In this document: positions 15,881-37,096 of the stretch, in pieces
How the letters are laid out: every line of letters begins with the position of its first letter
Position numbering within the stretch: the first letter of the stretch is position 1
DNA from: an uncultured delta proteobacterium
GTDB taxonomy: Bacteria; Desulfobacterota; Desulfobaccia; Desulfobaccales; 0-14-0-80-60-11
Assembly (NCBI GenBank): GCA_963705115.1
Contig: CAVPIX010000016.1
Location: 237,365-301,364 of the forward strand
Direction: 5' to 3'
DNA length: 64,000 nucleotides
Notes under the pieces: generated by a model
What the model saw: only the letters and a program-made list of their open reading frames with translations
Databases searched by the model: none
Told to the model about the DNA's origin: nothing
Program-made: the position numbers and the translations under genes

Positions 15881-15959
15881 GCACCCAGCTTTCTTAATCC
15901 CAGGGGGACCCGAGGATTACCCTCGGGCCGGCCATGAGTCCCTGCCGCGGGGACGCCGG

Positions 15960-16130
15960 CCAACCGAACGGGCAGGTCTTCTGACTTCCGGATCGCCCTA
16001 CTCCCTGCGCCTTCCCACGCCTTTTTTAGCGAAGTGGCCTCGTGCAGGTTTCGTCCCCGGTTACAGCGGCGGGACCGCGCCGGATTCTCACCGGCTTCCC
16101 TTTTATCCCCTCCTGGGGACCCGTCGGCTT
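15960..16130 (-). ncRNA. Cobalamin riboswitch
   Basis: Minus strand aaaagggaagccggtgagaatccggcgcggtcccgccgctgtaa...gccact...gggaaggc...aagtcagaagacctgcc (B12 box). Confidence 0.95.
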
Positions 16131-16238
16131 CGTGCTATATCATGAAAAAAAAATTATTCTCCGTCAAGAAAAAAATGCCCCTCAGGCGTTCACCTTAGGA
16201 TAGAATAGTGACACCTTATCCATCTCAGGACTCTCCCC

Positions 16239-30728: not shown

Positions 30729-31787
30729 CTATTTGTCCTCCTCGGCTGGAGCATGGGCAGCTTCTTCCAGAGCCTTCTTCACTTCCCGCTCGATGGCAGC
30801 CTTCTTGTCTTTATCAGCTTTGGCCAGGGCCTGTTCGAGGGCTCCCTGGGCTTTCTCCTGAGCTCTTGCCAGAGCTCTTGCCACAGCTTCCTGCCTCTCG
30901 TCGTCCGCGACCTGTTCCTTGCGCTTGTTCACCGCGTAAATGCCCACCAGCAGCACGGGCCAGAGGCTGGCCACCAGGGGCACGGCCGCCAGGGCCCCGG
31001 AGGTCAATTCGGGGGCTGGCGTGATCCCTAAGTCTTCCCGCATGCCGATGGTCTTAAAGGGCACACCTGAGAGGTACAGCCAACTCGTGCCGCCCATTTC
31101 CCGCTCGCCATAAATATGGTTCAGGTAGCGCCCCGGAAAGGATTGGATGCGGGAGCGGGCCACGTTAATGAGATCGGTGCGTTTGCCGTAAACCAGGGCC
31201 TCCACCGGGCAGGCGCCCGCGCAGCCCGGCACCATGAGCTGACCCGCGCTGATCTGGGGGTAGCACATGGTGCATTTCATGATCCGGGGAGTCAGGACCT
31301 GGTCATACTCGAAGGCGGGAATGTCAAAAGGACAGGCGACCATGCAGTAGCGGCAGCCCACGCACACCGAGCCGTCCCAGATGACGCCGCCCTGGGGCGT
31401 CTTGGTGAAGGCGTTGACAAAGCAGGCTGAAGCGCAGGCCGGCTCCAGGCAGTGCTGGCACTGGTTTTTGCGGAAGACCGGCCCCATGGCGCCCGGAATG
31501 TTGTCGTAACGGTTGACCACGGTGTAGGTCTTGGCATCGGTCCGCCGTTTCTTGTCCAGGACGCGCAAGTCGTCGAAGGGCTCGGGCGGGGGCGGCAGAT
31601 TGTTGACCTGGTTGCACCCGGCCTCGCACCGGCGGCAGCCGATGCACCGGGTGGCGTCGAACAGCACGCCGAAACTCCCGGGGCGGCCCTCAAAATGCTT
31701 GACCCCTGCGGCATGGGCCGTCGTCTTGCCCAAAACGGCGCTTAACCCTCCGGCTCCAAGCAGGCCCAGAAACGTTCTTCGTTGCAT
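30729..31787 (-). CDS. hmcB: Hmc complex periplasmic Fe-S subunit
   Basis: Tat signal RRTFLG, ferredoxin Cys clusters, [12 protein letters not shown]-terminal TM and coiled tail. Confidence 0.92.
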
Positions 31788-31820
31788 GGAAACACTCCTT
31801 ATTTTACAGCCCTCAGCCGG

Positions 31821-33485
31821 TTACTTCTTTTCCTTATGACAATCGAGGCAAGCCGTGGCTTCCGGCTTGACTCCCATGGACTTATGGCAACTCATGCACT
31901 GACCGTGCTGCGCCGCCAACAGGCCCGGACGGTTCGCCTCTCGGGGGTCAAAGCTGACCTTGCCCACCTGCTTGGCATGGCAACTGACGCAAGCGGGGGG
32001 GTTCTTCGCAGGCGGGCTGTTGTGGTGGCAGCCCTGGCAGACGGTGCCGGGATCGTTGTGGAAGAAATTGGCCAGGCGGCTGTCCTTCATGCCGGCCATC
32101 AGCTTTTGGACGTGCTCCCGGTGCGCGAACTCCACCGGCATATATTTGTCGGCCAGTTCCTTGATCACCACCTTGTCCGGGATGTCATGCACGGCGTAGG
32201 TGCCCGGGTTCATATTCCGGGTCTTGAGCAGGCTCTCGGCCATGGCGTTCCGTTGGGGCGCGGGCAGCACCGCCTCCTGACGCTGGGTGTCGGACAGGGG
32301 CAGGTGGCACAGCTTGCAGGAGGCCTTGTCCGGCTGGCCGGTCTCCGCAATGCTGTGGTGGCAGCCGGCGCAGGTCGGCTGGGCCTGCTTGGCCGCGTGG
32401 CAGCCCAAGCAGCTGGTCTGGCTGGACTTAAGGTGCATGGCCTGCTCAAAGGTCACAAAGTTGCCGTCTTTGGCACCCCCCAGGGTGTGGCATTTCTGGC
32501 AGGAATCCATGGAGGCGTGATGGCAGGCCCGGCAGGTGTCGCTGAATTTTTCGTGGCCTTTGTGGTCGAAGGGCACCGGGGCCATGGAGATGGGCTTGGC
32601 GCCCTTCCCTTCCCCGGCTTTGGGGTCATAGGTGATGAGGACCGCATCCGGCTGGCCTCTCATAAGCCGCGGCACTTCCTGGTTCGGGAGCTTGGCCACC
32701 ACCTCCTGGTTTCTCTTGGCCACCTCGGCCATACCGGCGGCGCTGTGGCACTCGGCGCAGCCCAAGGGGACATTGGCCTTCACTCCCTTTTGGGCCAGGT
32801 CGAGGTGGCAGAGCACGCATTGCTGATGCGCGGCCTGCTCGAAGCTCTTGACGCCGTCCTTGGCCTTGTCCAGGTGGCAGTAGCGGCAACTGGCTTCCTT
32901 GCCTTTGGCGGGCACCAGCTTTTTGGCCCGCTGGTCATATTCGTGGTGGCAAACCGCGCAGTTGTCCTTGTCGCCGCTCGCTCCCGGAATATTTTTGGAG
33001 TCCACATGCCGGAAGTGCAGCACCTTGCCCAGGCCGGCGTCAACTCTTTCCGCCTTGGGCGGGGTGGCGCTGTGGCAATCGCGGCAGAAACCGTCCAGGG
33101 GCCCCGATGCCTTCCCCGCGGCCACCGTTTCCTGATGGCAGCCTATGCAGGTGGCATGATAGATGTCCTTCATTTCGGAGGACTTCGTGGTTTTCTGGCG
33201 TTTGTAGGCCAGGGAGAGCTTCCCGTCCTCCACGAAGTGGCAGGTCTCGCAGCCCTTGTTCTCCTTTTTTAACGCGTCGGTGTGTTTGTCATGGAAGAAC
33301 TTGACCGCCGGCAGCTCAAGCTTGCCGTAGGCGGCCAGGGTGTCGATCTTGATGAAGTCCGGCCGCGCGGTCTCAGGCGCCTTGACCGGCTCCTTTTCAC
33401 CCTGGGCCTCAAAGCACATGAATGAAATGGCCACGAACACCAACAGGAATCCGGCCCAGTGAAGCAGTGGTCTTCCTTTCTCCAT
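31821..33485 (-). CDS. hmcA: High-molecular-weight 16-haem cytochrome c
   Basis: Signal peptide and 16 CxxCH motifs counted in the translation. Confidence 0.95.
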   Translation of the reverse strand: MEKGRPLLHWAGFLLVFVAISFMCFEAQGEKEPVKAPETARPDFIKIDTLAAYGKLELPAVKFFHDKHTDALKKENKGCETCHFVEDGKLSLAYKRQKTTKSSEMKDIYHATCIGCHQETVAAGKASGPLDGFCRDCHSATPPKAERVDAGLGKVLHFRHVDSKNIPGASGDKDNCAVCHHEYDQRAKKLVPAKGKEASCRYCHLDKAKDGVKSFEQAAHQQCVLCHLDLAQKGVKANVPLGCAECHSAAGMAEVAKRNQEVVAKLPNQEVPRLMRGQPDAVLITYDPKAGEGKGAKPISMAPVPFDHKGHEKFSDTCRACHHASMDSCQKCHTLGGAKDGNFVTFEQAMHLKSSQTSCLGCHAAKQAQPTCAGCHHSIAETGQPDKASCKLCHLPLSDTQRQEAVLPAPQRNAMAESLLKTRNMNPGTYAVHDIPDKVVIKELADKYMPVEFAHREHVQKLMAGMKDSRLANFFHNDPGTVCQGCHHNSPPAKNPPACVSCHAKQVGKVSFDPREANRPGLLAAQHGQCMSCHKSMGVKPEATACLDCHKEKK

Positions 33486-33553
33486 AACCCCAAACCCCAA
33501 TCCTTAGCTGATATGCAGGCTGTTGAGAGACCCTGAACTTGAGGAGGATTTCT

Positions 33554-33571: not shown

Positions 33572-33761
33572 TATAGTGCCTAAAAAATAGACATTGCTGT
33601 CAATCCAGTTCCCCCAGAGCCTCGCTGGTCATGTTTCTTAACATCAATAACTTACAGATAAAACAATCCTTTGCGCCCAGTACATGGCAATAATAGCACA
33701 ATTAGTTATCCAGTCAACATGAAAATTCCGGGGGTTCCCAAAAATTATGTGTTCAATATTT

Positions 33762-33798
33762 AAACAAAAAACGGCGGGCCCGTGGGCGCCGCCGTTCC
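33762..33798 (-). terminator. Intrinsic terminator after rplY
   Basis: Minus strand aacggcggcgcccacgggcccgccgttttttgttt. Confidence 0.75.
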
Positions 33799-33823
33799 GT
33801 GGGTTTGTCTGGGGTGAGTTTTT

Positions 33824-34465
33824 TTAGCTCTCAGCCTTTTCTTCCTTTTTGCCGCCCTTGACCAGCTCAGGTTCCGAGGGCACTTCTTCCACGGCTTCGG
33901 CGGCTTCCTCGGCCTTGGCCGCGGTGATGGAAACGATCACTTCATCCGGATCGGAGAGAATTTCCAGGGTGCCGGGCAGGTTGAGATCCCGGACGTGAAT
34001 GCTGTCGCCGGGTTCGGCCAGGCCGGAGATGTCCACCACCACCCGTTCGGGCATATCCTGGGGCAGGCACTCCACTTCCAGTTCCGTCAGGCTATGGACG
34101 AGGGTGGAGTCATAGGTTTTCAATGCGGGGGCGGTCCCCTGCAATTCGATGCCCACCTTGACGTGTGTCTTTTCCGTGAGGGACAGGACCTGGAAATCCA
34201 GGTGCAGGAGGTGGCGTTTTATGGGATGGCGCTGCTTTTCCCGGACCAGGGTGGGGTATTCTTTCCCATCCAGGCTGACGGTTACCAGGCTGGAGGAGGT
34301 CAGGCGTGACAGGGTCAGCGCGGTCTGGTGGGCGTCCAGCAGAATGGGGGTGGAATCAATACTGTGGCCGTAGAGCACCGCCGGGAGTTTGCCGGCCCGG
34401 CGCAAAGCGCCCACCTGTTTACCGATGACGTTGCGTTTGTCTGCTTTCAGAACAACCTTTTCCAA
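33824..34465 (-). CDS. rplY: 50S ribosomal protein L25 / Ctc (long form), TTG start
   Basis: AGGAG RBS; LRRAGKLPAVLYG, Q.HP....LLHLDF, EVECLP..MPE...VDISGL..GDSIHVRDL, acidic tail. Confidence 0.93.
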   Translation of the reverse strand: MEKVVLKADKRNVIGKQVGALRRAGKLPAVLYGHSIDSTPILLDAHQTALTLSRLTSSSLVTVSLDGKEYPTLVREKQRHPIKRHLLHLDFQVLSLTEKTHVKVGIELQGTAPALKTYDSTLVHSLTELEVECLPQDMPERVVVDISGLAEPGDSIHVRDLNLPGTLEILSDPDEVIVSITAAKAEEAAEAVEEVPSEPELVKGGKKEEKAES

Positions 34466-34517
34466 ATTGCGTACACTCCTTGTGACTTTTTCCGGATAAC
34501 TCCGGCAAAATCTAATA

Positions 34518-34791
34518 ACCTGGCCGTGCACCCTCCTTCGGGTCCGCCTCAGGCAGATAGGCTAAACCAGGGGGTTGAGGATTAGCGGTCGCCACGACAC
34601 AGCCGGCCCGGCTTACCGCTGCTTCCTTCCGGACCTGACGGGGTTCACCACCGTCTGTTGCGTGGGAGCCAATCCGCCCTTCTAGCCGCCGTCCCTGCCT
34701 GCGCCGCAACCCTCTTTGAGGGAGTTCAACCCCGCATAAGCGGTTTTCGGGCTACAGGGCACCGCTAGCTCCCCGTCTAGCACGACCAGGT
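34518..34791 (-). ncRNA. ffs: Signal recognition particle RNA, large bacterial type with Alu domain (~274 nt)
   Basis: Helix 8 gtcaggtccggaaggaagcagc; 5' Alu ggtcgtgctagacggggagctagcggtgccctgtagcccgaaaaccgct; terminal helix acctggtcgtgc / gcacggccaggt. Confidence 0.95.
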
Positions 34792-34802
34792 GTGGGTCTT
34801 GA

Positions 34803-35078
34803 TCAGTTGTCCACCAGTTCGCCCAGCTCCTTGCCGACCTTGAAAAAGGGGAGCTTTTTGCCCCCCACTTCAATGAGGTCCCCGGTCTTGGGGTTCCTCC
34901 CCTTGTAGCCGTTGTAAAATTTGACCTTGAAGCTGCCGAAGCCCCGGATCTCGATGCGCTCATGTTTGACCAAGGCCTCCGCCATATTCTCGAAGATAGC
35001 GTTAACCACCATCTCAGCTTTCTTCAAAGTGAGATTTTCTTCCTTGGCCAAAGCTTCAATGAGCTGAGACTTGTTCAT
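34803..35078 (-). CDS. IHF beta / HU-family DNA-binding protein
   Basis: MNKSQLIE, RIEIRGFGSF, GRNPKTG, PFFKVGKEL. Confidence 0.93.
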   Translation of the reverse strand: MNKSQLIEALAKEENLTLKKAEMVVNAIFENMAEALVKHERIEIRGFGSFKVKFYNGYKGRNPKTGDLIEVGGKKLPFFKVGKELGELVDN

Positions 35079-35577
35079 AGAGCGCTTCTCCTCTGGGGAA
35101 ATCGGCCGGCGGCCGCAAGGGCCGGAGCCGGGTGTGGGCTAATTGACTGAATAATATACAAAAAAAGATTGGGGGTAAAGAAAAAAATGTCAGCCGGAAA
35201 AAGAAGTATATCGGAATCTTGGCATAATAGTATTTGGTATTTAAAGTTGTTATATCAACAACCAGGGAGATGCCGCCTCACCTGCGACCATAATAGCATA
35301 TCCCGAATAGGATATCCTGGCTTGAAAGGGACTGCACGAAAAAAAAGCCTGTCACCCTTGGTTTGGCTCGCTTTAAAAAACGGAGCTTTTCCAGGTTTTT
35401 GCTGATTTACCCGCCATATTCATTATTCATCTTGGCAAGGGCTTGACAGGGCGTCTGGCTGACCCTAGGTTTGTTACGACAAATCCAAGCCCTGCCCGTG
35501 GAATCCCCGGCAAACCTGAGAGCTTCCCGTTGGCAGGATTTAAGAGAAAAAGATAACCCACACCTAAGGAGAATCGC

Positions 35578-36317: not shown

Positions 36318-36809
36318 TTAGTGGCCGCAGCCGCCTCCGCCCCCCGAAGAAGAGCAGGAACAGCCCGCCTGCACCTGGGTGGGCGCATTGCTGAACCCCA
36401 CCAGCTTGATGGAGAATTCCAGGTCTTTGCCGGCCAGGGGATGGTTGAAATCCACCGTAAAGGTCTCCCCGGCCAGGGTCAAGATCTTCCCGGGGACCGG
36501 CCCCTGGGGGGATTTGAACCACAATTCTTGTCCTTCCTCAACTTCCTTGCCGCTCAGCATGTCCCGGGGAAATTCCTTTTTCAATTCCTCCCGCTGGGGG
36601 CCGTAGGCATCGTCACAAGGAATGAGGAGCTTTTTCTCCTCGTTTACCGCCATGCCCTGGACCGCCTGATCGAAACCGGGGATGACCTGGCCGTTCCCCA
36701 CCTGGAATTCCAGGGGCTGCCGGCCCTCTGAACTGTCAAAAACCGTGCCGTCTGTCAGCCGACCGGTGTAATGCACCTGGGCGAACTGCCCTGACTGAAT
36801 TTTTTCCAT
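36318..36809 (-). CDS. slyD: FKBP-type peptidyl-prolyl isomerase (SlyD-like)
   Basis: VHYTG.L.DGTVFDSS, VIPGF, AYG, VDFNHPLAGKDL, short Cys/Gly/His tail. Confidence 0.88.
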   Translation of the reverse strand: MEKIQSGQFAQVHYTGRLTDGTVFDSSEGRQPLEFQVGNGQVIPGFDQAVQGMAVNEEKKLLIPCDDAYGPQREELKKEFPRDMLSGKEVEEGQELWFKSPQGPVPGKILTLAGETFTVDFNHPLAGKDLEFSIKLVGFSNAPTQVQAGCSCSSSGGGGGCGH

Positions 36810-37096
36810 TACGCCTCCTCTTTTTTTCACCATCACCTGACCGGGGGAATGATCTTGTCAGGAAAAAGCATTAGCTGGCGGGAGCAAAGCCGGCCACCTT
36901 GCCAAGCCGCAGGCAGCCCGCGTTAGTGACATTTCCCGACGAGGTGCAACCCCTGCACCTCGATGAGGTGATTTTCTCGAAGAATTATTTTTACTCATTA
37001 TAACATAATATCTGCTATCGGAAAGTGAAGAGCCCTCAGGGATTTGTTCGTCAAGACGACCAAGTTGGCATCTTTGCGCCTTGGCGTGACCCCCCA

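Follow-up and report, generated by a model that had tools for sequence, protein, structure and literature searches.

A long, Alu-bearing SRP RNA gene and its IHF-beta-like neighbour in the class Desulfobaccia

How does a Gram-negative bacterium come to carry a long signal recognition particle (SRP) RNA of the Alu-bearing type, and do the genes that flank it belong with it? The question is raised by a 64-kb window, the whole stretch of DNA analysed here, from the genome of an uncultured bacterium of the phylum Desulfobacterota, class Desulfobaccia (assembly GCA_963705115.1, contig CAVPIX010000016.1, positions 237,365 to 301,364), in which the SRP RNA gene, ffs, stands between a gene for an HU/IHF-family protein and the ribosomal protein gene rplY. 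A passage of PMC4231752 describes the SRP RNA of Gram-negative bacteria as devoid of an Alu domain, Thermotogae excepted. An earlier note, made from the sequence of the window, had proposed that the three genes form a translation and targeting module, possibly acquired horizontally, that replaces or supplements a native 4.5S RNA. The analysis presented here points elsewhere: the ffs gene of the window, the only one of its host, is very probably ordinary for its lineage and inherited vertically. Its RNA belongs to the long, Alu-retaining type, and the gene is a member of an old pair with the IHF-beta-like gene upstream. The patchy occurrence of the Alu domain among relatives is best explained by loss in place.

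The SRP RNA, its fold and its partners

A cmscan search of the whole window with Rfam returned a single SRP match, Bacteria_large_SRP (RF01854), at 34524-34785 on the minus strand, which scores 135.8 bits against a gathering threshold of 60 (E 3.4e-21) and runs over the entire model (positions 1-256 of 256). The RNA, its two domains and the gene immediately upstream are placed in the window as follows.

34518..34791, minus strand: ffs, long Alu-bearing SRP RNA of ~274 nt (RF01854 core at 34524-34785 plus a 12-bp closing helix)
34723..34785, minus strand: Alu 5' domain with helices 2, 3 and 4, the UGUA turn and the loops GCGG/CCGC (from the cmscan structure line)
34577..34674, minus strand: S domain, the Ffh-binding helix 8 region with its GGAA tetraloop, common to 4.5S RNA (RF00169, 58.6 bits)
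34803..35078, minus strand: gene for an HU/IHF-family protein, IHF-beta-like, 91 aa (PF00216, 102.9 bits), the conserved upstream neighbour of ffs

The cmscan alignment takes in the helix joining the two ends, helices 2-4 with the UGUA turn, the long helix 5 and the S domain with its GGAA tetraloop. In a single-sequence fold of 34516-34793 (minus strand) positions 3-14 pair with positions 265-276, forming the 12-bp closing helix and setting the ends of the RNA at about 34791 and 34518. The fold was examined further in an alignment of 63 sequences, the window RNA and 62 distinct relatives, with consensus pairs predicted by RNAalifold. Compensatory changes are seen in 40 of the 65 predicted pairs, and those of helix 5 show many of them. 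Ten pairs of the closing helix are predicted in this alignment and its outer pairs, which lie beyond the Rfam model, covary, the outermost being C-G in 31 sequences and U-A in 28. The stems of helices 3 and 4 are kept across the 63 sequences, with changes that are mostly absent or one-sided. In the window RNA the helix-3 loop reads AGCGGU and the helix-4 loop ACCGCU, the UGUA being present as well; the complementary cores GCGG and CCGC do not vary among the 63 aligned sequences, a constancy that gives no covariation and that, judged from the sequences, fits a loop-loop contact. Conservation of the Alu 5' domain as a whole is high, 33 of its 64 columns being invariant among 57 distinct sequences, and a covariance model made from this domain alone (model R1, 63 positions and 13 pairs) gives 90.7 bits at the window locus.

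The window RNA is a genuine, well-formed Alu-type SRP RNA in a Desulfobacterota genome. In this respect the earlier note had read the locus well: the ~274-nt RNA with a full Alu domain that it described is matched by RF01854 over the whole model and extended by the fold to 34518-34791, its 12-bp closing helix is reproduced by the single-sequence fold and covaries in relatives, its loop complement AGCGGU/ACCGCU and UGUA are both in the sequence, with cores invariant in all 63, and the full-length RF01854 match confirms that an Alu-type SRP RNA occurs in Desulfobacterota.

With RF01854 and the Bacillus subtilis scRNA, a 6S-type SRP RNA, the window RNA shares, along the whole model, the Alu helices 2-4, the UGUA, the complementary loops, the long helix 5, the GGAA-tetraloop S domain and the helix closing the 5' and 3' ends. 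It differs from RF01854 in a closing helix that is 5-6 pairs longer than in the model, the extension covarying; from the B. subtilis scRNA in its gene order, an IHF-beta-like gene followed by ffs and not ffs followed by dnaX. Its host, moreover, belongs to a Gram-negative class of Desulfobacterota, whereas a passage of PMC4231752 names Thermotogae as the only Gram-negative exception. The S domain (58.6 bits), and presumably Ffh binding, is common to this RNA and the 4.5S RNA (RF00169, E. coli ffs); the Alu domain and most of helix 5 are missing from the latter.

The assembly, searched whole (20 contigs, 96.9% complete), contains a single match to RF01854 and a single match to the 4.5S model RF00169, the latter inside the same RNA (G000:C16:271941-272038, that is window 34577-34674). 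The suggestion that the long RNA replaces or supplements a native 4.5S RNA finds no counterpart in this whole-genome search with the small and large SRP models, a check that the earlier note had itself proposed: there is no second SRP RNA, the window RNA is the sole one, and the small-SRP model matches only within it. The protein partners are encoded as well, FtsY at 346 bits, above its cut-off, and Ffh in two overlapping frames of 311.7 and 276.1 bits (TIGR00959 positions 1-236 and 233-428). The ffh gene lies outside the window, at contig C10:265124-266402, and shows an apparent one-base frameshift near 265,705, for which an assembly error is the probable cause, given that ffh is essential.

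Inheritance in the class and the Alu domain across the phylum

The search covered the class Desulfobaccia with all its 83 genomes, which fall into one order with two families (f1 and f2), the window genus g1 belonging to f1. The large SRP RNA is present at full length (1-256) in 75 of them, two of which, both poor bins, carry two copies. Partial large-SRP matches were obtained in two more, and no large SRP RNA was found in the remaining six of the 83 genomes (completeness 73-99%). The ffs locus is probably unassembled in these six, because the orthologue of the linked IHF-beta-like protein is missing from the same six genomes. In a maximum-likelihood tree of the 63 SRP RNAs the class forms one clade of 28 rows (support 97/95), within which f2 (97/96), f1 (98/86) and the window genus (100/98) are nested clades. 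Identity to the window RNA by blastn is 90-92% for two loci of the same genus, 78-85% for other genera of f1 and 74-81% for f2; in 11 of the 12 loci from other families the main matches stand at 72-77%. Since the long form is found in 75 of the 83 class genomes, and genus, family and class all come out as supported clades of the RNA tree, its inheritance is vertical, and the long, Alu-bearing RNA is the ordinary form in this lineage.

For a wider view, 151 Desulfobacterota genomes were drawn evenly from the phylum, each at least 90% complete. Strong full-length RF01854 matches (at least 120 bits) occur in 23 of them, the others giving weaker "global" or S-domain-only alignments. Model R1 matches 23 genomes of the sample at 75-92 bits and no others, and this set is identical with the set that reaches 120 bits with Rfam's own model. 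The Alu form thus extends over 17 of 115 genera and 13 of 74 families. It is a minority state in the phylum, as unusual for such Gram-negatives as the earlier note had held, and it is fixed in the class Desulfobaccia; besides this class, at least 11 further families of the sampled Desulfobacterota have kept it.

How this patchy distribution arose is best seen where Alu-bearing and Alu-less RNAs occupy the same place. In family f14 one genome (G134) has the Alu domain and four (G094, G167, G197 and G226) lack it, all five having the IHF-beta-like gene directly upstream. At the loci of Desulfarculus and Dethiosulfatarculus the SRP RNA is a short hairpin with no Alu motif, best matched by the small-SRP model. 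Because Alu-less SRP RNAs occur at the same locus in relatives, the patchy occurrence is best read as repeated loss in place and not as import. As to its deeper history, we lean towards the view that the ancestor of this part of the phylum already had the Alu domain, and that several deletions in place have since produced, within a family such as f14, matched RNAs with and without it at one locus.

The same results bear on the proposal that the IHF/HU-ffs-rplY unit was acquired horizontally, for instance from Bacillota or Chloroflexota, replacing or supplementing a native 4.5S RNA. The rarity of the Alu form, seen in 23 of 151 sampled genomes, would suit such an origin, and so would the statement in a passage of PMC4231752 that Gram-negative SRP RNAs, except in Thermotogae, are Alu-less; but the genome has a single SRP RNA, 75 of the 83 class genomes have the long form at full length, and the groups of the RNA tree agree with taxonomy. 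Conservation of the upstream neighbour extends across classes, Alu-less loci included, and rplY joined the locus in one genus only. Nor is there a compositional or repeat signature: the G+C fraction in 600-nt windows over 33600-34999 is 0.54-0.59, that of the flanking intergenic stretches 0.48-0.50 and the local range 0.48-0.68, and no repeats beyond short chance matches flank the unit. Any recent transfer is already contradicted. The horizontal acquisition suggested in the earlier note, which was to be given up if the long RNA proved the ordinary inherited form of its lineage, gives way to a class-wide long form whose tree follows genus, family and class, and we consider it very improbable.

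The IHF-beta-like gene and the question of an SRP role

The upstream gene ends at a stop codon at 34803-34805 and the RNA begins at 34791, which leaves a gap of 11 nt, just as had been noted before. Its 91-aa product matches PF00216 at positions 1-89 of 90, with 102.9 bits against a gathering threshold of 22.4. The best NCBIfam label is IHF beta, below the equivalog cut-offs of NF001222 and TIGR00988 (101.1 versus 115 and 95 versus 119.95, respectively); the scores for IHF alpha and HU are 64 and 57. Four PF00216 genes are present in the genome, one HU-like at a distance of 47 kb, two IHF-alpha-like, and the window gene, the only IHF-beta-like one. We keep the label IHF-beta-like HU-family protein, and not IHF beta, because the scores lie below the equivalog cut-offs even though the label is the best one and the protein is the sole such paralogue. 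The RNPKTG arm motif is kept, which we take to be a mark of the housekeeping DNA-bending subunit, and by its sequence the protein looks like the housekeeping beta DNA-bending subunit and not like a specialised HU.

Of the 75 class genomes with a full-length ffs, 73 have the gene ahead of it on the same strand, at a distance of 15-185 nt; in one exception (G043) the contig ends, and in the other (G054, 70% complete) no orthologue was found. Outside the class it precedes ffs in five of the 12 best-scoring large-SRP loci (families f28 and f50), and coordinates place the pair in families f68, f14 and f31 as well. Among 80 named orthologue loci (62-96% identical) a large SRP RNA follows in 33, a small one in five and none within 1.5 kb in 42, the last group including, by label, Syntrophobacter and its relatives, relatives of Geobacter and Desulfuromonas, and Myxococcota. 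The IHF-beta-like gene followed by ffs is an old two-gene arrangement, present throughout the class and in several other Desulfobacterota lineages. Of the potential HU-family partner that the earlier note saw beside ffs, the immediate and deeply conserved neighbour has stood up; its assignment has not, the protein being IHF-beta-like and the HU-like gene lying 47 kb away. A pair with a large SRP RNA is also carried by L049, a record titled Acidobacteriota bacterium MAG; its phylum label is doubtful, since in the RNA tree it groups among Desulfobacteraceae-labelled sequences.

The pair occurs with Alu-less SRP RNAs too, in Desulfarculus, Dethiosulfatarculus, one Desulfobacterium-labelled and one Desulfatiglans-labelled genome and in G111. 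At a Desulfobacterium-labelled locus (L074) a hairpin RNA of ~130 nt stands close behind the IHF-beta-like gene. In relatives of Desulfarculus and Dethiosulfatarculus (L046:1774-2250, L047:1579-1900 and L048:1774-2200) a hairpin with a U-run separates the gene from the Alu-less SRP RNA, and these loci appear to consist of two transcription units. Because Alu-less SRP RNAs sit at the same place in Desulfarculus and its relatives, the pair is independent of the Alu domain.

This independence bears on another explanation of the pair, namely that the IHF-beta-like protein is a dedicated partner of the Alu domain, a counterpart of HBsu in B. subtilis or of eukaryotic SRP9/14, and that the two genes are kept together so that parts of one particle are made in step. 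HBsu has been reported to bind the Alu domain of the scRNA (Nakamura 1999, as cited in passages of PMC4231752 and PMC4359368), and this report counts in favour of such a partner. The window neighbour belongs to the same family as HBsu, the HU of B. subtilis (PF00216), but it scores best as IHF beta and not as HU, and what connects it with the SRP here is gene neighbourhood. Across the class, 73 of 75 genomes retain the pair next to a downstream gene that varies freely; this would agree with a shared function, as would the presence of the pair in 14 of the 23 Alu-bearing sampled genomes against at least 5 of the 128 Alu-less ones, the latter count being a lower bound drawn from the best 150 of 456 protein matches. 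Pair-carrying lineages are related, however, so that this enrichment does not represent independent events, and nine of the 23 Alu-bearing genomes do without the pair, four of them (f42 and f73) and a fifth (f33) having dnaX downstream. The persistence of the pair with the Alu-less SRP RNAs of the genomes named above weakens the analogy with HBsu, and the hairpin and U-run between the two genes in the Desulfarculus and Dethiosulfatarculus loci point the same way. The protein itself, the only IHF-beta-like paralogue of its genome and a bearer of the RNPKTG motif, looks housekeeping, and ffs is not linked to the HU-like paralogue, which is the nearer counterpart of HBsu. In B. subtilis, too, hbs is not known to be next to scr.

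The literature is divided on this point. Kempf et al. 2014 describe prokaryotic Alu domains as protein-free and state that a specific role of HBsu could not be established, which speaks against a dedicated partner. Taken together, the evidence leans against a strict link between the pair and the Alu domain. A protein dedicated to the Alu domain is in our estimation unlikely, and there is a similarly small chance that the IHF-beta-like gene and an Alu-type ffs form one conserved transcription unit whose protein also serves as the SRP Alu partner in Desulfobacterota. An ordinary ffs paired since long ago with a gene of housekeeping appearance remains the preferred reading, and it is in the light of this reading that the downstream side of the locus and its transcription signals are now considered.

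The downstream gene, transcription and significance

Three further features complete the locus.

33824..34465, minus strand: rplY (bL25/Ctc, two-domain; TIGR00731 138.3 bits against a cut-off of 73.1, PF01386 71.3 bits, PF14693 86.8 bits)
33762..33797, minus strand: intrinsic terminator after rplY, a G+C-rich hairpin followed by UUUUUUGUUU (-25.5 kcal/mol, z -4.21, 0 of 200 shuffles as good)
35151..35179, minus strand: candidate sigma-70-type promoter (TTTACC, 17 nt, TATTAT) upstream of the IHF-beta-like gene, by consensus match only

The likely start of rplY, an in-frame TTG at 34465, has AAGGAG 10 nt upstream and lies 52 nt past the 3' end of the RNA. The longest open reading frame, from a GTG at 34531, would overlap the SRP RNA, and this GTG is probably not the real start. 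The measured 52 nt and the hairpin with its UUUUUUGUUU agree with the earlier description of rplY about 50 nt behind the SRP RNA, followed by a terminator. In a search of the class in which 35 of the 83 genomes gave no match to the rplY query at E 1e-10, rplY directly follows ffs in seven of the seven genomes of the window genus that have both genes, and is next to ffs in none of the 41 other class genomes in which it was found. The recurrence of the same gene order in these seven independent assemblies rules out an assembly chimera, the artefact by which the earlier note thought its own proposal could fail. Elsewhere the gene downstream of ffs varies: it is pyrG in f2, and in other genomes a flavodoxin-fold gene, a glycosyltransferase, pilM, an ABC transporter or others. 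In f42, f73 and f33 (L023-L027) dnaX stands downstream of an Alu-type ffs that has no IHF-like neighbour; ffs-dnaX is the classical gene order in B. subtilis. The position of rplY is the product of a rearrangement specific to the window genus, and the unit consists of an old pair and a recent, genus-level neighbour. The three-gene module of the earlier note is accordingly confined to that genus (7/7, against 0/41 elsewhere in the class); of the synteny it asked about across Desulfobacterota, the succession of IHF-like gene and ffs holds in 73 of 75 class genomes and in other lineages, and the adjacency of rplY does not.

Directly past the rplY terminator, at 30729-33500 (minus strand), lies an Hmc-like pair of redox genes of a kind typical of sulfate reducers; one encodes a multihaem protein of the cytochrome c3 family (559 aa, with four PF02085 stretches), the other a 4Fe-4S protein of 352 aa. 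At the other end of the locus, beyond the AT-rich intergenic stretch that precedes the IHF-like gene, are a flavodoxin gene (PF00258; 35578-36024, plus strand) and a gene for an FKBP-type peptidyl-prolyl isomerase with a Cys/Gly/His-rich tail (36318-36836, minus strand). A Cobalamin riboswitch (RF00174), full length and at 115.3 bits against a gathering threshold of 31.5, occupies window 15954-16139 (minus strand).

As regards transcription, neither the 11-nt gap ahead of ffs nor the 52-nt gap behind it gave a promoter-like site in a consensus scan, and no acceptable -10 box was seen by eye ahead of 34791. The short stretch from the IHF-like stop to ffs showed no hairpin with a U-run, either in the window or in the 27 class relatives inspected, whose gaps are similarly short. 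Because the gap in the window (11-17 nt) leaves no room for a terminator or a recognisable promoter, ffs would be co-transcribed with the gene upstream. A terminator-like site at 34848-34866, inside the IHF-like reading frame, falls on codons of the conserved KLPFFK motif and is regarded as coincidental. Many Desulfobaccia relatives, among them L014, L020, L038, L039 and L040, have a run of 5-9 U right after the closing helix, within the first 15 nt past the RNA, and in these helix 1 and the U-tract may act as the SRP RNA's own terminator.

Public metatranscriptomes were consulted as well: 24 runs share 0.05-0.12 of the words of the region, and contigs of four of them were aligned to it. These contigs, which cannot show transcript starts, ends or levels, cover mainly the conserved S-domain and Alu stretches and have many loose ends and skipped parts, because of which they are assigned to the SRP RNAs of other organisms. 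One run (X1) supplies two error-free 151-nt contigs inside the IHF-like gene, and another (X3) a 91-nt piece over 34684-34774 with one difference. Among the matches listed (28 pieces from four runs) none bridges the junction of the IHF-like gene with ffs or that of ffs with rplY.

Several observations tell against the account given here. Only 23 of the 151 sampled genomes have the Alu form, and an ancient transfer into an ancestor of these lineages may have taken place, which a tree of RNAs of this phylum only would not show; model R1, moreover, was made from Desulfobacterota sequences only and run with strict filters, and a strongly diverged Alu domain could escape it. The ffh gene reads as two frames in the assembly. 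Co-transcription is argued from spacing, and the metatranscriptome contigs gave no piece bridging a junction. In many relatives the closing helix is followed directly by a U-run, terminator-like, with nine U's in L014, a locus of the window genus; the corresponding tract in the window, UUAUUAGAUUUU, is weaker. Finally, rplY may have its own, unrecognised promoter.

With these reservations, the preferred reading of an ordinary, inherited ffs suggests the following course of events. By established SRP biology, the S domain would bind Ffh, and the long helix 5 would bring the Alu domain, kept in shape by a loop-loop contact, to the factor-binding site of the ribosome; there elongation would be slowed during delivery of the nascent chain to FtsY and SecYEG. 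The RNA is most likely transcribed together with the IHF-beta-like gene and may be released by cutting at the closing helix, and rplY may be reached by read-through. The B. subtilis scRNA is likewise cut from a longer precursor.

The RNA family itself is already known, and the RNA of the window was found with Rfam's standard model. A full-text literature search found nothing joining SRP RNA and the Alu domain with Deltaproteobacteria or Desulfo- names, although Rosenblad et al. 2009 and Regalia et al. 2002, which lie outside that search, may already list such bacteria; nothing relevant was found for ffs with ihfB, and none of the papers matching "Bacteria_large_SRP" concerned this phylum by title. 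What is of interest is the distribution: a whole Gram-negative class and at least 11 further families of the sampled Desulfobacterota keep the Alu domain, and close relatives have lost it at the same locus, while reviews and structural papers, to judge by a passage of PMC4231752, still describe Gram-negatives other than Thermotogae as Alu-less. The pair of IHF-beta-like gene and ffs offers a lead on the long-standing question of HU-family proteins in the bacterial SRP, and the partner explanation, if true, would revive the disputed link between HBsu and the SRP with independent comparative evidence from Gram-negatives. The matched Alu-bearing and Alu-less lineages of Desulfobacterota can be used to ask what the Alu domain does in bacteria and what compensates for its loss.

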